In this document: one piece after another, positions 6,730 to 16,029 of the stretch
Layout: each line of letters begins with the position of its first letter
Position numbering within the stretch: position 1 is the stretch's first letter
Virus record (IMG/VR): IMGVR_UViG_2684622579_000002
Direction: 5' to 3' (one strand)
Length of the DNA: 16,029 bases
DNA from: a virus
Taxonomy: Duplodnaviria > Heunggongvirae > Uroviricota > Caudoviricetes
Translations under genes and position numbers: made by a program
Notes under the pieces: generated by a model
Database searches by the model: none
What the model saw: only the letters and a program-made list of their open reading frames with translations
What the model was told of the DNA's origin: nothing

Positions 6730-6906
6730 ATGGCTAAACAGAAGTGTACCTGGTTATTTGCGGCGATCAACCGCAGTCAACGCAATGCCCGTCCTGTGAT
6801 GTTAAGGATCACCGCAGATAACGAGCGGTCAGCGCGGCGCAGACTTGCCCCGGACTATGTACTGAGCTTTGCCGGGCGCATTCCCTGCGGAGGTGAACAT
6901 GCGTAA
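6730..6906 (+). CDS. Small protein (58 aa), first gene of the replication operon; possibly Icd-like
   Basis: Hand-translated MAKQKCTWLFAAINRSQRNARPVMLRITADNERSARRRLAPDYVLSFAGRIPCGGEHA; AAGAGG SD 8 nt upstream; stop overlaps the next gene start (ATGCGTAA). Family assignment is from memory and weak. Confidence 0.5.
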   Translation: MAKQKCTWLFAAINRSQRNARPVMLRITADNERSARRRLAPDYVLSFAGRIPCGGEHA

Positions 6907-7574: not shown

Positions 7575-7954
7575 ACCAGCCGCAGGTTTCCATTTTCCCG
7601 GCAGAAATGACCACCGCGCTTTACCGGCGGGCTATTGCTTCAGCATGGCGGCAGAAAATGCTGAACGAAACTGGCAGTGATCAGTATGGTCCGCACAGCC
7701 TGACGGTGGAGCGTATTGAAATGGCCATTGCGCTGCATATCGAGTGCGTACTGATTAACGAGTACGGCGAAGTGCAGGGCGCCGCTACCGCGCTGGCACT
7801 GCTGACTGACATGCTGGAGCCGTCACTGCTGACCGCGCCGCCGGTACTGACCGCGCGCGGCTGTGAAGTGATGGCGGAGATGTACCGCACGCTTCCGGCG
7901 GCCTTTGATGACTTCTGCAGTACCGGTGTGACGTTGTATGAGGGGGAAGTATGA
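7571..7954 (+). CDS. Hypothetical protein (127 aa)
   Basis: ATG 7571 with GGAGGT SD; ATGA overlaps at both ends indicate translational coupling into the primase gene. Confidence 0.55.
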   Translation: MNQPQVSIFPAEMTTALYRRAIASAWRQKMLNETGSDQYGPHSLTVERIEMAIALHIECVLINEYGEVQGAATALALLTDMLEPSLLTAPPVLTARGCEVMAEMYRTLPAAFDDFCSTGVTLYEGEV

Positions 7955-10623
7955 CAATACGGACGGTTACGCAGATTTCAGCCGCCGCACGGGGGAAATG
8001 GCCCGTTATTCTGCAGATGCTGCGTATTGATGTACCTGAAAACGGCAGGCACGGTCCCTGCCCGAAATGTGGGGGCAAGGATCGTTTTCGCCTTGATGAC
8101 CTTGACGGGCGCGGGACGTGGATCTGCAGCCAGTGTGGCAATGGTGACGGTCTGGATCTGGTTAAGCTCGTAACCGGTTACAGCGTCAGAAAGGCTGCGC
8201 AGGAGGTGGCGCAGGTGCTTAATGTGCCGGATGTGCAGGAACTGCCTGTTAAGCCTGCCAGACAAAAAGCCCCTAAACGAGACATGGGTCTTACCGTGGC
8301 GGCGCTGATGAAAGAGAGCCACACGGGAGAAAGCGCCTATCTGACAGGAAAAGGGTTCGCCGGATACCCGGCCTCTCTGACCGGAAGCGTGCAGCATATC
8401 AGCGGTAAGGATTTTCCTGCCGGTTCCCTGCTGTTACCACTCACGACCAACACCGGAGCCGTGACCGGTGCACAGCTTATCGCCCCGACGGGTGAAAAAA
8501 GCATACTGCCCGGCAGCACGATGAAAGGCGCGTTTGTGTCGCTCAGCCCGTTACCGTCTGAACCACCGGTACAGGTGGTGATTACCGAAGGTTACGCTAC
8601 GGCGCTGACGGTAAGCCAGCTCACTGCCGGATGCGTAGTGGCTGCCATATCTGCGGGCAACCTGCCCAATGTGGCGCAGTCGCTGCGGGCACGCTGGCCT
8701 GAGGTAAAAATTATCATCGCCGGTGATAACGATTTTCAGGACGGGGGTGAGAATCCCGGCAGAGCCTTTGCTGAACGGGCGGCAAAAGCTGTTGGCGGCT
8801 GGATGACGCTGCCACCAGGAGAGATTAAGGCTGACTGGAATGACTTTCATCGGGAGCACGGTATTACCCGTGCCCGTGAAGCCTTTCGCAACGGTCTGGT
8901 ACTGTGCGGGGAAGGCCGCACGCAACTGCCGCACGGGTTCCGTCTTACCCAGGAATATCTCTGGTATGAAAAGCAGGTACAGCGCAACGGTGAGACGGAG
9001 ATCCAGAACGTCAAAATATGCAGCCCGCTGCGCGTGACGGCAATTACCTGCGATGCCGATGGCGGTAACTTCGGACGACTGCTGGAATGGGAAGATACGT
9101 GGGGTGAGTGTCGCCGCTGGGCGATGCCAATGGAAATGCTGAGCGGCAGTGGTGAGGAACTGCGCCGGGTACTGCTGGTTAACGGGCTGTCTTATATCAG
9201 CACCACCGGTGAGGCACGCGCACGCCTGATGGAATATATCTCACTGTGTAAACCGGAACGCCGCGTGACCTGCGTCAGTCGTACTGGCTGGCATGGTCAG
9301 GTTTACGTCCTGCAGGATGAGGTCAGCGGTGAAGGTGCAGAGGGTGTCATTCTCCAGACCACTTCCGTGCAGGGGCGTGATTTCCGCGTGTCGGGCACAA
9401 CAGAGGAATGGCGGGAGCATGTATCCCGCTACTGTACCGGCAACTCCCGCGTGGCATTTGCTGTCAGCCTGGCCTTTGCTGCACCACTGTTACGGCTGGT
9501 TGGTATGGACGGCGGCGGCTACCACCTCAAAGGGGAATCGACAGACGGTAAGACCACCACCATGAAAGCGGCAACCTCCGTCTGCGGCGGGCCTGACTAC
9601 TGGCAGACATGGCGGGCCACCGGCAACGCGCTGGAGGGATGCGCCAGCCGCCGTAACGATGCCGCCATGATGCTTGATGAGATCCGGGAAGTTGACGGAC
9701 GCGAGGCAGGCAATATCGCCTACATGCTGGCAAACGGTCAGGGCAAGGGCCGTGCCGGTACGGACGGTGAGCTGCGTACCCGTAAGCAGTGGCGCCTGTT
9801 GTTCTTTTCAACTGGCGAGTTGTCTCTGACCGAACATGCGGCAAAGGCCGGTGAGCGTACTTTTGCCGGGATGGAAGTCAGGATGATCCAGATCCCCAGC
9901 GATTCCGGGAAGTTTGGCGTTTTTGAGGAGCTGCACGGCTTCGACAGCGGCAAGGCTCTGGCAGAGCATCTTGAATGGGCCACGTCCTGCTACTACGGTT
10001 CGCCGTTCCGGGAGTGGCTGAAAGCACTGACCGCTGATCTTAACGGACTAACGGCACAGGCAAAATCGCTGATGAAGGAATATGCTGCCGCCCTGACTCC
10101 GAAAGATGCAGGCAATCAGGTGGGCCGGGCTGTGAACCGCTTTGCACTGGTGGCGATGGCAGGTGAACTGGCAACCCGTCTGGGTATCACCGGCTGGCCT
10201 GAGGGTGAAGCACTGCGGGCAACCCGCGTCTGCCTGAACGCATGGCTGAAAGATCGCGGGCACACCGCCAATCAGGAAGATATCGCCGCACTGGAGCAGG
10301 TTCGCAGTTTCTTTACCGCGAATCAGTACAGCCGCTTTGCAGACTGGTATGACGAGCGCAACCGCCCCGGCAATATGGTGGGCTGGCGCAGGGTGGAGAA
10401 AGGCAGTACCGCGCAGGGCACGGAAGCTGTCACTACGTTCTATGTCATGCCGTCCGGCTGGAAAGAAATCTGCAGGGGATTTGACCCGCGCAAGGTGGCG
10501 CGTCTGTGCGCAGATCGTGGATACCTGCTGCCCTCCACTGATGGCAAACTCCAGACAACCATTCGCCCGCCAGAGATGAATCCCCGCAGGCTCTATGTCT
10601 TCAACAGCGAGGTGCCGGGTTAA
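7951..10623 (+). CDS. P4-alpha-like primase-helicase (890 aa): zinc ribbon, TOPRIM and C-terminal P-loop NTPase domains
   Basis: N-terminal CPKCGG...CSQCG zinc-binding motif; TOPRIM-like VVITEGYATALTV and IIIAGDNDFQD; Walker A-like GESTDGKTT. GAGGGGGA SD upstream of ATG 7951. Confidence 0.9.
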   Translation: MTIRTVTQISAAARGKWPVILQMLRIDVPENGRHGPCPKCGGKDRFRLDDLDGRGTWICSQCGNGDGLDLVKLVTGYSVRKAAQEVAQVLNVPDVQELPVKPARQKAPKRDMGLTVAALMKESHTGESAYLTGKGFAGYPASLTGSVQHISGKDFPAGSLLLPLTTNTGAVTGAQLIAPTGEKSILPGSTMKGAFVSLSPLPSEPPVQVVITEGYATALTVSQLTAGCVVAAISAGNLPNVAQSLRARWPEVKIIIAGDNDFQDGGENPGRAFAERAAKAVGGWMTLPPGEIKADWNDFHREHGITRAREAFRNGLVLCGEGRTQLPHGFRLTQEYLWYEKQVQRNGETEIQNVKICSPLRVTAITCDADGGNFGRLLEWEDTWGECRRWAMPMEMLSGSGEELRRVLLVNGLSYISTTGEARARLMEYISLCKPERRVTCVSRTGWHGQVYVLQDEVSGEGAEGVILQTTSVQGRDFRVSGTTEEWREHVSRYCTGNSRVAFAVSLAFAAPLLRLVGMDGGGYHLKGESTDGKTTTMKAATSVCGGPDYWQTWRATGNALEGCASRRNDAAMMLDEIREVDGREAGNIAYMLANGQGKGRAGTDGELRTRKQWRLLFFSTGELSLTEHAAKAGERTFAGMEVRMIQIPSDSGKFGVFEELHGFDSGKALAEHLEWATSCYYGSPFREWLKALTADLNGLTAQAKSLMKEYAAALTPKDAGNQVGRAVNRFALVAMAGELATRLGITGWPEGEALRATRVCLNAWLKDRGHTANQEDIAALEQVRSFFTANQYSRFADWYDERNRPGNMVGWRRVEKGSTAQGTEAVTTFYVMPSGWKEICRGFDPRKVARLCADRGYLLPSTDGKLQTTIRPPEMNPRRLYVFNSEVPG

Positions 10624-10649
10624 GGCTTTGCGTGAGTCTTATTTATTAA

Positions 10650-10845
10650 GGGTAACAGGTGAAACAGGTGGAACAACCGTATTTTACAGGGCTGAATCTG
10701 TTCCACCTTCTGAAATAGTGAGGTGGAACAGATGTAACGCCAGCCAATCCGCTGTTCCACCTTGTTACCCGCGATGTTCCACCGGTGCAGTGTATATAAA
10801 TGCTTTATAAAACAAATGGGTAACACATGTTTCACCTGTTACACC
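10650..10845. repeat. Iteron cluster: five copies of the 9-mer GGTGGAACA/TGTTCCACC in alternating orientation, bounded by a 15/16-bp inverted repeat, with an adjacent AT-rich tract
   Basis: GGTGGAACA at 10667-10675 and 10722-10730; TGTTCCACC at 10699-10707, 10753-10761 and 10775-10783; the forward-reverse pair recurs with 55-bp periodicity. Outer inverted repeat GGTAACAGGTGAAACA (10651-10666) versus TGTTTCACCTGTTACA (10828-10843). AT-rich tract gtgtatataaatgctttataaaacaaatg at about 10790-10817. Confidence 0.65.
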
Positions 10846-10933
10846 GCATCAGGGACATAAAGCAGACTGAAACAGAGGGCATTTTTATCTGGCTGGCTTT
10901 CATAGCCACGTCTGAATAACCGCAAGCGCCCGT

Positions 10934-10951
10934 TGTACCAGCCACCACACA
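10934..10951 (+). promoter_or_regulatory. TGT-N12-ACA dyad (TGTACCAGCCACCACACA), candidate Ogr/Delta-dependent late promoter element for the sid/psu/ogr operon
   Basis: The motif centre lies about 80 bp upstream of ATG 11024, compatible with the roughly -55 placement of this element in P2/P4 late promoters. Confidence 0.4.
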
Positions 10952-11023
10952 CTGAGCACCGATAGTGTGCTTGTGTCAGCCACGACACAATTGACGTAAC
11001 GAACCAACCCGACAGGAGAAGTC

Positions 11024-11767
11024 ATGAACAACACCGCAGTGAATAACAACCTTTCCACTTTTCCGGCTGTAACGCAGCGGGCACTGGAAACCATGAACAC
11101 AGCCAGAAACGCATGGCTTGAAGCACGTCGTCAGCAGAAAGCGGCAGCGGATAATATTGCGACAATCCGCCAGCGTCGCGCTGAAATGGAAGCCACGACG
11201 AACACACTGAATGAGGAGTGGCGCACGCTGTTTCGTGAAAGTCAGGGCGTGGTCTCAAAGGAAATGAAAAAACTGCGCACGGAAATTGCGCTGGGACGAG
11301 AAACTCTTGAGGATTTTGATGAGCTGCTGGAGGCTCAGGAAAGCGAAAATGCACTTTTGCCGCAGAAAGCTGCGGAATTAGCCGGAAAGTATATCCACGC
11401 GCATAACATCCTTGTGGATATTCGCGCAAAACAAATCTGGGAAGATTTTATGCAGTCGCATGGAAAAGCGCTTATTCAGACGCTGAGCCTGCTTAAATCC
11501 ACAATGGGCCGGGAAGCCAGTGCCGTTGTGGGTGTGGTGAATTCAGTTAATGACCCGGACACAGTGCTGAAAGACTTTATTCATAAACATATCACCAGAC
11601 CGGCTCTGGCTAACGATGCGATGCCTGAGCAGGACCCGGTGTTTAAACTGGCGGGAGTTGCCCCGGATTATGCGGCGCGTCTGGATTTCAGTAATCAACT
11701 CTCTCCGGCAGCTATGCATAAAATTAAGGTTCGTCAGGAACTTGCTGAGAAGGAGAAAGCAGTATGA
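11024..11767 (+). CDS. Sid/Psu-family protein (247 aa); by size and position probably a Sid-like capsid size-determination scaffold
   Basis: GGAG SD 5 nt upstream; shares NAWLEARRQQKAAAD and DFMQSHGKAL motifs with the downstream Psu-like protein; ATGA coupling to the next gene. Confidence 0.6.
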   Translation: MNNTAVNNNLSTFPAVTQRALETMNTARNAWLEARRQQKAAADNIATIRQRRAEMEATTNTLNEEWRTLFRESQGVVSKEMKKLRTEIALGRETLEDFDELLEAQESENALLPQKAAELAGKYIHAHNILVDIRAKQIWEDFMQSHGKALIQTLSLLKSTMGREASAVVGVVNSVNDPDTVLKDFIHKHITRPALANDAMPEQDPVFKLAGVAPDYAARLDFSNQLSPAAMHKIKVRQELAEKEKAV

Positions 11768-12315
11768 CGGCCCGAGGCACGCCTGACCAGGCACTTACCA
11801 GTTTTCGGAATGCCCGTATTCTGTGGGCCGGACATAATGAGAGCCGAAAAGCCGTTGAACAACAGATAACATCTCTCCTCGCTGCCACAGAAAAACCAGC
11901 AGATTATGCCCGACAGCTCGAATTACTGCGGGAACGTCTGGATGTGCTGAAATGGCAAATTAACTGTGCTGCGCGCGAATGCATTTACTCGCAGCATTTA
12001 CTGATGGAGGCCTGCACAGAAGCCGCTCTCAGCAATTTTATGCAGGCGAATGGGGCAGCCCTGACATCTGCACTGGCTCCGTTCCTGAAGGGGCGCGGAG
12101 GGGTTGACGTTGCGTCCCGTATATTACGCAGTGCTCTGGTTCGCCAGCTGGCAATAACACCGCCTGAAATTGCCGGGGATTATCGTGAGATCCTGGATGA
12201 ATCCGGTTTGATGCCTGACCCCGGGATGATTCGTGATTGCCAGGGTTCTTACACCCCGGCACAACATCTGCGTTTTCAGCAACGCCTGAATGACATTAAC
12301 GATATACAGGAGTGA
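11764..12315 (+). CDS. psu: Psu-like polarity suppression / capsid decoration protein (183 aa)
   Basis: LKWQINCAARECIYSQH and FMQANGAALTSALAPFLKG match my recollection of P4 Psu (VRKWQVNQAAGRYI and FMQQHGTALAAALAP); similar length to P4 Psu. Confidence 0.65.
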   Translation: MTARGTPDQALTSFRNARILWAGHNESRKAVEQQITSLLAATEKPADYARQLELLRERLDVLKWQINCAARECIYSQHLLMEACTEAALSNFMQANGAALTSALAPFLKGRGGVDVASRILRSALVRQLAITPPEIAGDYREILDESGLMPDPGMIRDCQGSYTPAQHLRFQQRLNDINDIQE

Positions 12316-13122: not shown

Positions 13123-14082
13123 ATGCTAACCAGGGCTGAAAATATAAGAAAAATCACAAGCTATTTAGCTATTCTCTCAAGAGAGGTTGAGATTAGTGCC
13201 TCCCTCAATCTTTTGGATATCAACGTTCAAGCGGAATCTTTTTATAGAGATTTCTTAAACTTATGTTATGGATATAATTTAAGAAATACCAATAGTGAAG
13301 AGCAAAACTACCAAGCAATAGATCTTGCTGATGAAGATCGGAAGATTGCTATACAAGTAACTTCAACTTCTGACTTGGGAAAAATTAAGAATACAGTTGA
13401 TGGATTTATAAAAAGTAAGCAATATGAAAAATATGATAGACTAATTGTACTGAATATAACTGAAAAGAAAAAGCACAGATTGAAAGAGTATGGAATAGCC
13501 GGGTGCTATGTAATTAATATCAAAGATGATGTATGGGATTATAAGGATATAATTAGAAAGATAAACGATTTGAATGATTGTGATATATCAACAATATGCT
13601 CATTTTTGGAACGTAATATTAATACTAAAGCTGCTGATAAACCGCCGAAAGAAGTCACAACTATGTTTGCGATGATTGAATTATTGAGTGATGATGCTCA
13701 CCCATTGGCAGGAAATGGATTTATTGAAGAGCCTAATCCTGAAAATAAAATATATAAAAGATTTTCAGATTATTCAGAGCGGTTGATTGGCTTATATACT
13801 GGGTTAGCTCCATTATATAGTGGGATATTTAAGTCAATAAAAGAACAGAGCGATATTGGTATCGTAAGGTACCAAAAGATGAGTTTGTATTTAGAGTCAT
13901 TTAGTGATAAGGTCTTAAGAAGCCATGGTGGAGATCCTATCTTGGCGCTTAATTATTTAAAAGAATATTTTTCTAAACAACTGAGCCAGAGAAATGTAGA
14001 TTACGATGAAACAGCTATCAAATTTTTCTTAATTGAGAATTTAATTGCATGTAACGTCTTTCCTAATTCGGAGATTCTTTGA
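13123..14082 (+). CDS. Hypothetical protein (319 aa), putative effector of a three-gene system; N-terminal region possibly SMEK-like
   Basis: AGGGA SD 6 nt upstream; AT-rich codon usage. N-terminal LNLLDINVQAESFYRDFLNLCYGYNL...IAIQVTSTSD resembles what I recall of SMEK-domain proteins of ABC-three-component systems; unverified. TGATG overlap with the next gene. Confidence 0.65.
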   Translation: MLTRAENIRKITSYLAILSREVEISASLNLLDINVQAESFYRDFLNLCYGYNLRNTNSEEQNYQAIDLADEDRKIAIQVTSTSDLGKIKNTVDGFIKSKQYEKYDRLIVLNITEKKKHRLKEYGIAGCYVINIKDDVWDYKDIIRKINDLNDCDISTICSFLERNINTKAADKPPKEVTTMFAMIELLSDDAHPLAGNGFIEEPNPENKIYKRFSDYSERLIGLYTGLAPLYSGIFKSIKEQSDIGIVRYQKMSLYLESFSDKVLRSHGGDPILALNYLKEYFSKQLSQRNVDYDETAIKFFLIENLIACNVFPNSEIL

Positions 14083-14330
14083 TGTTAAGTTTTTTTTCGA
14101 AAGATGAGGATTTGACAAAATCCCCTCCTGTTGTAGGGGCTAAAATTCTTAATTTATTTGACGAAACAAAAAAAGAAAAAATTAGTATTTTCGATTTAGC
14201 AAAAGAATTAAAGAAAAACAACTCTCTAGGAGTGCGTGCAATTTATTTTGGAATGGTCTTTCTTTATACTCTTGATCTTATCGATTTCGATGAGCCATAT
14301 GTGATAAATAAAAATGTTAAGAATAAATAA
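14082..14330 (+). CDS. Small protein (82 aa), putative middle/adaptor component
   Basis: ATG 14082 overlaps the upstream TGA (14080-14082); its 3' end overlaps the ATPase start by 17 nt; AT-rich. Confidence 0.55.
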   Translation: MLSFFSKDEDLTKSPPVVGAKILNLFDETKKEKISIFDLAKELKKNNSLGVRAIYFGMVFLYTLDLIDFDEPYVINKNVKNK

Positions 14331-16029
14331 ACTATATAGCATACCAGAATCTTTTGAGCCAGTAAGCTTTGATAGTGGCATCAATATCATCTTAGGTGAA
14401 AAAGATGTTTCATCTAACAAAACTAATGGAGTGGGTAAAACTCTTTTAATAGAGTTTATTAATTTTTGTTTATTAAAAGAATTTAAGTCGAGTAGAGTTT
14501 CTAAAATTCCTCATTCTGATTTTTCGAAAGACATTTTGATATGCCTTGATTTTAATATTGATAATATTAACATTATATCCCAGCGTTCTATTGGGAAACA
14601 TAATGAGCCAACACTTGTAATAAATGGAAAAACAATAGAGTTTAGTGGATTAGATGATGCGTTATCTCATTTAAGCAATCTTATCTTTAAGAATAGTAAG
14701 GGTATACTTCATCCATCATTTAGAGCGATGCTGGGGCCTCTGATACGCGATGAACGATCTGAATTTAAATCTATTGTTGAGTGCTTCGACACAAAATTAC
14801 ATATACCTGCTGACTATACTCCTCATCTTTATTTGTTAGGTATTGATATTGCTCCCTATAAAGAGGCAAAGATTTTACAACGAGAAATAGATGATTTATC
14901 AACTACAAAAAATAAAATAAAGAGAGATATTGAATTTCTGACGGGAAAAAAAATTAGTTCTGCAAAGGCAGAGGTTAATGATCTTAAATCAAAAGTTGAA
15001 CATATCAGAAACGCTATGGATGCATTTGATAGCGATAGCAGTTATGAACTTATCAAAGATGAAGTAGAAGAATTAGAAAGTTCTTTAGAAGAGTTGCGGA
15101 ATAAAAGAACAATACTTAAGTTAGAGCTTTCAAGAATAAATGCTCTCGTTGGTGAAGTATACATAAATGATGATGAAGTAGTTGAAATTTATAATAAATT
15201 TAAAGTTGGATTAGGTGATGCTATCAAAAAAGAACTTAATGATGTTATTTCATTTAAGAAAAAAATAGATCACTTCCAAAACACTTTGTTAAATACGCGA
15301 AAAGAAACATTACTTTCTGAATTGCGTAAGATATCAGATAAGCTATATACAGTAAATAGACTTTATAAAGAAAAAGCTAGTGTTTTTGAGCAGGCGGGGG
15401 GGTTTAAAAGCCTGAAAATTTTAATAATGACTTATCAGAAAAAGTTAGAGGAGTATTCACAGTTATCTTCATTGCTTAAAAAATTTGAAGATTTCGATTC
15501 TAAATGGAAAGTTAAGAAGTCAGAACGCTCTTCTATGATAATTTCGTTAGATCTTTCTATTATGGATAACGAAAAAACGATTGAATCTTTTGAGGAAACC
15601 ATTTTATCAATCCATGAATATGTTTTTGGAAATAGAAAGTGTTCTTTCGAAATTAAGGCGACAGAGAAGAAAGAAACTATCTCAATGGATTTAAGAATTG
15701 ATGATGACGGTAGTCATAGTAATGAGCGAGAAAAGGTTTTCTTTTATGATTTGGCTCTTTTACTTACAGAAGAAACGTTTCGACGTCACCCTGGATTATT
15801 AATTCATGATAATATTTTTGATGTGGATCAAGATACATTAATTAAAAGCTTGAATTATTTGGCAGAGAAATCCAGTTGCTTAAATGATGCACAATATATT
15901 TTGACGTTAAATAGCGACAAAATTAGTGAAATTGATAAAAGAGATTTGAAACTAGATATTAACTTCTATAAGCGAGCTTCGTTAACTAAAATAAATAGAT
16001 TCCTGGGAAGGCATTATCAAGAAATATAA
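14314..16029 (+). CDS. ABC/SMC-type coiled-coil ATPase (571 aa; the ORF ends exactly at the window edge)
   Basis: N-terminal P-loop region NIILGEKDVSSNKTNGVGKTLLIEF; long charged helical middle (EAKILQREIDDLSTTKNKIKRDIEFL...); C-terminal Walker B-like GLLIHDNIFDVD. TAA at 16027-16029. Confidence 0.8.
   Translation: MLRINKLYSIPESFEPVSFDSGINIILGEKDVSSNKTNGVGKTLLIEFINFCLLKEFKSSRVSKIPHSDFSKDILICLDFNIDNINIISQRSIGKHNEPTLVINGKTIEFSGLDDALSHLSNLIFKNSKGILHPSFRAMLGPLIRDERSEFKSIVECFDTKLHIPADYTPHLYLLGIDIAPYKEAKILQREIDDLSTTKNKIKRDIEFLTGKKISSAKAEVNDLKSKVEHIRNAMDAFDSDSSYELIKDEVEELESSLEELRNKRTILKLELSRINALVGEVYINDDEVVEIYNKFKVGLGDAIKKELNDVISFKKKIDHFQNTLLNTRKETLLSELRKISDKLYTVNRLYKEKASVFEQAGGFKSLKILIMTYQKKLEEYSQLSSLLKKFEDFDSKWKVKKSERSSMIISLDLSIMDNEKTIESFEETILSIHEYVFGNRKCSFEIKATEKKETISMDLRIDDDGSHSNEREKVFFYDLALLLTEETFRRHPGLLIHDNIFDVDQDTLIKSLNYLAEKSSCLNDAQYILTLNSDKISEIDKRDLKLDINFYKRASLTKINRFLGRHYQEI

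Follow-up and report, generated by a model that had tools for sequence, protein, structure and literature searches.

Short repeats downstream of a primase-helicase gene: the probable single replication origin of a P4-like satellite of Escherichia coli

What purpose is served by a cluster of short repeats, arranged in both orientations, that begins directly behind a primase-helicase gene? The window analysed here, a stretch of 16,029 nucleotides from IMG/VR virus record IMGVR_UViG_2684622579_000002, carries such a cluster in the intergenic region between the gene for an 890-aa primase-helicase (7951-10623, + strand) and the next gene, which starts at 11024. The original prediction took the repeats for the binding sites of the primase-helicase and for the replication origin of the element, by analogy with the alpha protein of P4 and its cis-acting regions ori and crr. 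Our analyses lead to a related but modified view: it is probable (we would put it at about 0.8) that 10630-10845 is a single replication origin, whose 8-9 bp iterons would be read by a predicted winged helix at the C-terminus of the protein encoded just upstream.

The element that carries this region is an E. coli P4-like satellite located at a tRNA-Thr gene, next to proA; over the stretch tested, the window is identical to an E. coli chromosome. Its genes lie on one strand in the order integrase, small regulators, a DUF5375 protein (homologue of P4 ORF106), primase-helicase, Sid-like protein, Psu, an Ogr/Delta zinc-finger protein, and SMEK and DUF2326 genes; it is the set int, DUF5375, primase-helicase, sid-like, psu and ogr/delta that marks it as P4-like. 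The array occurs at ≥ 90% identity in 326 of 5,426 complete E. coli genomes, and seven E. coli genomes have two places matching the same array. The two genes that follow the intergenic region (11024-11767 and 11764-12315) are adjacent members of the Psu family, the first with a weak Psu match and in the Sid position, the second with a strong Psu match; P4 sid is itself annotated as Psu-like, and the order sid-psu-delta of this element compares with sid-delta-psu in P4. Beyond ogr/delta, positions 13123-16029 hold a SMEK-domain gene, a small ORF and a DUF2326/AAA gene, which probably represent the satellite's defence hotspot cargo. Their equivalents in a related E. coli locus (L059) are annotated as an ABC-three-component system. 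A sequence like the 19-nt P4 cohesive end was sought across the whole window and was not found, and a cos or packaging site within the array was rejected on the same ground, the window having no similarity to P4 cos.

The intergenic region contains eleven sites of 8-9 bp, five of them exact and six degenerate, in the order FFF-R-F-RRR-[AT-rich]-F-RR (F, forward; R, reverse), preceded by a conserved box of 20 bp. The five exact copies of GGTGGAACA (or TGTTCCACC when read from the other strand) that had been predicted are all present, at 10667 (+), 10699 (-), 10722 (+), 10753 (-) and 10775 (-). To these we add three copies with one mismatch, at 10658 (+), 10828 (-) and 10837 (-), and, if the 8-mer GGGTAACA is allowed, further sites at 10650 (+), 10763 (-) and 10818 (+), which brings the total to eleven in 196 bp. 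The first of them lies 27 bp 3' of the primase-helicase stop codon. Such a density would hardly arise by chance: with at most one mismatch allowed, the pattern is present nine times in the window against 2.6 expected, a count reached in 0 of 200 shuffles, and all eight matches to GGTGNAACA in the 16-kb window fall inside the 188 bp from 10658 to 10845.

Read from left to right, the array opens with a tandem triplet on the + strand at a spacing of 9 bp (10650-10675: F1 GGGTAACA, F2 GGTGAAACA and F3 GGTGGAACA), which is found at the same position in related loci, followed by a single reverse site whose position is also kept across loci (R1, 10699-10707, reading TGTTCCACC on the + strand). A forward pair comes next (10722-10739, + strand), made up of F4 (GGTGGAACA) and a decayed tandem copy, GATGTAACG, at 10731-10739, which comes on top of the eleven sites and in the common E. 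coli allele is the consensus GGTGGAACG. Three reverse sites (10753-10783, - strand: R2 TGTTCCACC, R3 TGTTACCC and R4 TGTTCCACC) then lead up to an AT-rich segment at about 10789-10817, a candidate unwinding element with sites on both sides. The right-hand sites (10818-10845) consist of the forward 8-mer GGGTAACA at 10818-10825 and two reverse copies, TGTTTCACC (10828-10836) and TGTTACACC (10837-10845), both of which read TGTTCCACC in close relatives. The allele in the window thus has three decayed copies (GATGTAACG, TGTTTCACC and TGTTACACC) where the common E. coli allele or close relatives have the consensus, and this exact allele of the array is shared with only one complete E. coli genome.

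The larger features described from the sequence at the outset can be followed in this layout, one of them at a different place. The 55-bp periodicity is borne out by same-strand copies 55 bp (10667 to 10722) and 54 bp (10699 to 10753) apart. The bounding inverted repeat, given as 15/16 bp, is real and somewhat longer, with arms of 19 nt that are 95% complementary (10652-10670 and 10824-10842); the arms are tandem degenerate iterons that face each other, GGGTAACA-GGTGAAACA-GGTGGAACA on the left and TGTTTCACC-TGTTACACC on the right. An AT-rich stretch exists as well, but rather than following the array it sits inside it, between the fifth exact copy and the right arm. It includes the least stable 25-mer of positions 10500-11050 (10793-10817, -24.2 kcal/mol against a window mean of -32.5, sd 4.0), although this instability is only moderate, ranking about 146th among the 16,004 25-mers of the window. 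The segment is off-centre, with eight sites to its left and three to its right. The three sites just left of it point the same way as the two outermost right-hand sites, and the site sets opposed to each other are the outermost ones, the triplet at 10650-10675 (+) and the pair at 10828-10845 (-).

Several other kinds of feature were looked for in and around the array. No second iteron cluster was found in the 16-kb window, nor within 3 kb on either side of the gene in related loci, and no long direct repeat, including the 120-bp organisation known from P4, was found in the array. The array contains no consensus DnaA box (one match with a single mismatch is at chance level) and no IHF site beyond chance, which fits a start of replication that would be independent of the host initiator. 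No sigma-70 promoter was found in the region, and no terminator-like site between the primase-helicase gene and the array. Two 71-aa ORFs that run over the array (10595-10810 on the + strand and 10620-10835 on the - strand) were discarded as genes, as they are unannotated in RefSeq and interrupted by indels of 1 nt and 7 nt in relatives.

The left edge of the origin array is formed by the conserved leader box, GCGTGAGTCTTATTTATTAA (10630-10649, + strand). A box of the form CG(T/C)GAGTCTTAT, continued by T/A-rich sequence, stands ahead of the first iteron in almost every related locus, irrespective of iteron class, and it moves with the array in locus L039 (box at 6808-6826), where a gene has been inserted after the primase gene. 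It resembles TCTTTTTTATTAAGG in P4 ori (9382-9396 of P4, our locus L001). No conserved hairpin or consensus structure was found in the box, and the idea that it is a terminator or structured element was dropped on that account and for want of a terminator-like site. Strong terminator-like hairpins (GGAGGGGCG...CGCCCCTTTTTTT) do follow the primase gene in two other loci, L036 (2793-2830) and L037 (5664-5700), with the iterons beginning about 90 bp later; this hairpin is absent from most loci, the window included.

On the far side of the array, a pattern search located two TGT-N12-ACA dyads (10934-10951 and 10972-10989, + strand) upstream of the sid-like gene at 11024, the first of them 89 bp after the end of the array, in a stretch that aligns with the Psid region of P4. 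Their centre-to-centre distance of 38 bp presumably corresponds to the -55 and -18 sites reported for P4 Psid. The dyads are a probable Psid-like late promoter of the sid-like gene, activated by Ogr/Delta and with a start site expected near 11000, that adjoins the origin and is separate from it. A further motif, TTCTGGC(N)GGC, follows the array at about 40 nt and comes before the Ogr/Delta dyads (TTATCTGGCTGGC at 10886-10898) and is kept in most related loci and in P4 (TTCCTGGCTTGCC at about 9463-9475 of L001).

The primase-helicase comprises a Zn-ribbon and Toprim primase (residues 5-316), a DUF927 helicase (residues 330-612, Pfam) and a C-terminal helical bundle with a winged helix (about 657-884). 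The suggested analogy with P4 alpha applies to part of this protein: residues 5-316 are the sole part that resembles alpha (38% identity, BLASTP), whereas the helicase and the C-terminal part belong to the SaPIbov1 Rep/Cch type, the helicase having phmmer matches to SaPIbov1 Rep (8tch, 4.5e-15) and SCCmec Cch (5dgk, 2.8e-13). Rep and Cch are self-loading initiators that have their iteron origin directly 3' of the gene. In a model of residues 641-890 built with 37 homologues (mean pLDDT 84), a helical bundle leads into a unit of the order strand-strand-helix-helix-strand-strand (residues 811-884), and Foldseek returns 8tch with probability 1.0. The origin-binding domain of P4 alpha (1ka8) has no profile similarity to the C-terminus of the initiator (hhalign probability 0.1%) and is absent among the fold matches listed; the C-terminal 250 residues have no Pfam match, whereas the P4 C-terminus matches Pox_D5. 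Homology between the DNA-binding domain and the origin-binding domain of P4 alpha was therefore rejected, none being seen by BLASTP, Pfam or hhalign or among the fold matches listed. A likeness between the wing motifs GIQTNL of P4 and KLQTTI of the window protein is a lead by eye only. Judged by these matches and the model, the initiator is a hybrid, in which a P4-type primase is joined to a SaPIbov1 Rep/Cch-type helicase and a predicted winged helix.

The association between array and gene is far wider than this one element. A scan of one genome per species yielded 55 loci across the Enterobacterales that encode relatives of the protein (57-100% identity), 51 of them usable. In 47 of the 51 usable loci, the 320 bp that follow the stop codon hold 4-12 copies of an 8-mer specific to the locus (23 per kb), against three occurrences of such 8-mers in 371 kb of flanks. 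In three further loci (L039, L047 and L056) an inserted gene separates the primase gene from the box and array, which are found some 1.1 kb farther down. The architecture is kept in 50 of the 51 loci, the sole locus without an array being truncated, and follows throughout the order box, 2-3 forward, 1 reverse, 1-2 forward, 2-3 reverse, AT-rich gap and 2-3 reverse sites, or FFF-R-FF-RR(R)-AT-RR(R). The AT-rich gap is at the same place in the related loci and often holds one forward site.

While the layout is stable, the word itself differs between lineages. We distinguish at least seven word classes (GGTGGAACA, GGTGTAACA, GGGGTAACA, TGGTAACA, GTGGGAACA, GTGGATACA and TGTAGTACA), and any one locus uses one class in all of its copies. 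For example, a Pantoea locus (L006) whose protein is 91% identical to that of the window has GGTGTAACA at each aligned site where the window has GGTGGAACA, a T for a G, and the spacers diverge freely. Such concerted change within a locus is to be expected if a single co-evolving protein reads all the sites. In three genomes, two elements with differing iteron classes are found together (Pantoea stewartii L004/L046, Pantoea leporis L013/L052 and Enterobacter intestinihominis L012/L042), a number too small for significance.

Two pairs of closely related proteins have different iteron words. Residues 841-890 make up 5.6% of the protein length. Between the Xenorhabdus loci L023 and L024, which use GGTGTAACA and TGGTAACA, the proteins have 31 differences, five of them in this segment; between the Proteus loci L025 and L028, with GGTGTAACA and GGGTAACA, there are 21, four of them in the segment (binomial p 0.028 for each switching pair). 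Six pairs of Xenorhabdus loci with the same iteron, by comparison, have 177 differences, none of which lies in residues 841-890 (Fisher p 5e-5 for L023/L024 against these pairs). The substitutions in the switching pairs fall at 846 and 850, where the predicted recognition helix begins, at 866, 867 and 870 in the first strand of the wing, at 883 in its second strand, and at 887 in the tail. Across the loci, residue 866 is Lys with GGTGNAACA or GGGTAACA words and Arg with TGGTAACA-type words, an association that is confounded by phylogeny. Column-wise mutual information between residues and iteron class did not single out the winged helix; we regard that scan as uninformative because it is dominated by hypervariable N-terminal columns and phylogeny, and used the close-pair comparison instead. 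Segment-wise identity against iteron class likewise gave no clean signal. The covariation thus consists of two independent close-pair switches and one phylogeny-confounded association, and we consider it supportive, not proof, of a model in which the iteron word tracks the predicted recognition helix and wing of the initiator. Together with the retention of the array in 50 of 51 loci and the concerted change of its words, it lends comparative support to the proposal that the array is both a set of primase-helicase sites and an origin.

How might such an origin work? We propose that initiator oligomers would assemble on the opposed tandem sites at the ends of the array and on the inner sites, the end sets positioning two assemblies, and that the AT-rich segment at 10789-10817 would then open. 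The DUF927 helicase could load itself, the fused Toprim primase would prime, and a host polymerase would take over. The scheme as a whole would follow the pri-rep-ori logic of SaPIs and PICIs, and would functionally be that of P4 alpha and ori. We infer binding, melting, self-loading and priming alike from the anatomy of the locus and from the SaPI/PICI and P4 precedents, and on sequence alone the element may have an origin of another kind elsewhere. The initial description had left the choice between an ori and a crr; a single array suits the origin reading, and because there is no second cluster we favour a single origin rather than a pair of ori plus crr.

The choice nonetheless deserves to be weighed against other uses of the sites. 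The array could be an auxiliary cis element like crr, bound by the initiator while synthesis starts at a separate origin, just as P4 needs both ori and crr. P4 crr occupies the same position directly downstream of alpha, and a short stretch resembles it (CAATCCGCTGTTCCACCTT vs CAATCCACTGTTCACCCTT, a score reached by nine of 300 shuffles). Such a helper seems very unlikely, however, given that neither the window nor the 3 kb around the gene in related loci holds a second cluster, that the 120-bp direct repeats are missing, that the array has its own AT-rich segment flanked by sites, and that its best P4 match is ori. Very unlikely, too, is a mainly regulatory operator, whether for read-through of the replication operon, for control of a sid-like late promoter or for pairing of elements to set copy number. 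The location between a replication gene and a late promoter, 89 bp before the first TGT-N12-ACA dyad, would suit such an operator, as would the lack of a terminator-like site between gene and array, and plasmid iteron arrays combine origin and control functions. But a regulatory role would add to an origin function and not replace it, the arrays of L039, L047 and L056 keep box and architecture at about 1.1 kb from the primase gene, and an AT-rich core with inverted site sets is the origin layout of SaPIs and PICIs (PMC9371898, PMC6092414).

That the sites are instead bound by some other protein, be it the integrase, a helix-turn-helix regulator, Ogr/Delta, a packaging protein or a host protein, we hold to be highly improbable. 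The repeats do hold TGT...ACA triplets like those of Ogr/Delta dyads, but the true TGT-N12-ACA dyads are separate, at 10934-10989. The sites are also about 5.5 kb from int and away from the element end, and similarity to P4 cos is lacking. The word switches coincide with changes in the predicted winged helix of the primase-helicase, and the array is linked to that gene across the Enterobacterales. We therefore retain the reading of 10630-10845 as a single replication origin served by its upstream gene.

If correct, this reading locates the likely origin of a P4-like lineage that many other Enterobacterales share with E. coli, where 326 of 5,426 complete genomes have it; we found no description of the lineage in the literature searched. 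The design principle is already established for SaPIs, PICIs and P4; what matters for the annotation of such elements and for satellite-based delivery vectors is that a hybrid replicon would here use a single PICI-style origin and not the two-site system of P4. The natural iteron switches, each with few amino-acid changes, offer a tractable case for studying how a winged helix reads 9 bp, and could yield orthogonal replicons. We raise more tentatively, as a possibility that we think has less than an even chance, that the family is a set of mutually orthogonal initiator-origin pairs, with at least seven words each matched by a few substitutions in the recognition helix and wing, and that the cis module (box and iterons upstream of Psid) shares ancestry with P4 ori. 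Were this true, co-resident satellites could replicate without cross-talk, replication engines would have been exchanged on a conserved origin scaffold, and P4 ori and crr would go back to one ancestral site.

Among known systems, P4 is the obvious first comparison. The iteron that the original prediction had given for P4, TGTTCACC (the complement reads GGTGAACA), agrees with the annotated P4 record and with the P4 sequence itself, and the P4 core word GGTGAACA is nearly the same as the window words GGTGGAACA, GGTGAAACA and GGGTAACA, which differ from the P4 iteron by one inserted base or two substitutions. The octamer TGTTCACC is itself absent from the window array, which is made up of the 9-mers TGTTCCACC, TGTTTCACC and TGTTACACC and the 8-mer TGTTACCC; the window has one exact GGTGAACA, which at 6892 does not belong to the array. 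Alignment with P4 ori and crr, proposed earlier as a check, gave ori as the best match and crr as a weaker one: positions 10636-10667 (TCTTATTTATTAAGGGTAACAGGTGAAACAG) align with the ori core at 9382-9414 of P4 (TCTTTTTTATTAAGGTGAACAGAGGTGAACAG) with a score of 33, against a shuffle mean of 16 (sd 2) and with none of 300 shuffles reaching it. P4 ori and the window have in common tandem forward sites, then a reverse site and an AT-rich stretch. In the P4 annotation, crr comes right after alpha, and the iterons of ori are placed some 80 bp ahead of the Psid dyad. The array in the window fills both positions, ori-like upstream of a Psid-type promoter and crr-like downstream of an alpha-type gene, because the replication operon of this element is co-oriented with sid, whereas that of P4 is divergent from it.

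Other features set the two systems apart. The window has a single array, where P4 has ori and crr several kb apart with crr consisting of two 120-bp direct repeats, and although the primase domain is homologous to that of alpha, the helicase is of the DUF927 type while P4 has another type of helicase and a C-terminus with Pox_D5. On the strength of the local similarity to the ori core, the array may share ancestry with P4 ori, despite the origin of the helicase and origin-binding half from another family. Since it lacks the octamer, the two separated elements, the 120-bp crr repeats and an alpha-type C-terminus, we do not file it as a member of the P4 ori/crr system.

The word iteron also invites comparison with plasmids. 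Iteron plasmids of the pPS10, RK2 and F type have direct repeats of about 17-22 bp that are bound by WH1-WH2 Rep monomers, with DnaB recruited through DnaA (PMC4980987). A plasmid oriV also has DnaA boxes and an unwinding element that depends on DnaA. Like a plasmid oriV, the window array has repeated putative initiator sites beside a candidate AT-rich unwinding element, and its family falls into initiator-iteron specificity classes. Unlike oriV, its sites are only 8-9 bp long and stand in both orientations, a consensus DnaA box is missing, and the initiator itself is helicase and primase.

The closest parallels are with the replication modules of SaPIs and PICIs. SaPI Reps read their iterons via a C-terminal winged helix; these iterons directly follow rep and flank an AT-rich region (PMC9371898, PMC7581432). 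Modules of this type have at least two iterons on either side of that region, pointing in opposite directions. The E. coli PICIs have the same origin layout, their pri-rep-ori replication having been tested for one of them, and four of their Pri-Rep alleles have been described (PMC6092414). For the comparison with EcCICFT073 Pri-Rep and its origin, the stretch of the CFT073 chromosome that we examined proved to be a lambdoid prophage and was set aside. The element nevertheless differs from these modules in several respects. With sid, psu, ogr/delta, DUF5375 and a late promoter of the P4 type, it is P4-like and does not have the gene set and layout of a PICI, its primase domain is alpha-like, its iterons are 8-9 bp long compared with 5-6 bp in SaPIs, its AT-rich segment is off-centre, and a conserved leader box precedes the array. 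What it has in common with them is the plan of the whole: a DUF927-type initiator-helicase, self-loading in SaPIbov1 Rep/Cch, with a C-terminal helical and predicted winged-helix domain; a primase that is fused to the helicase or lies next to it; an array of short iterons directly 3' of the gene, pointing both ways about an AT-rich segment; and initiator alleles paired with cognate iteron words.
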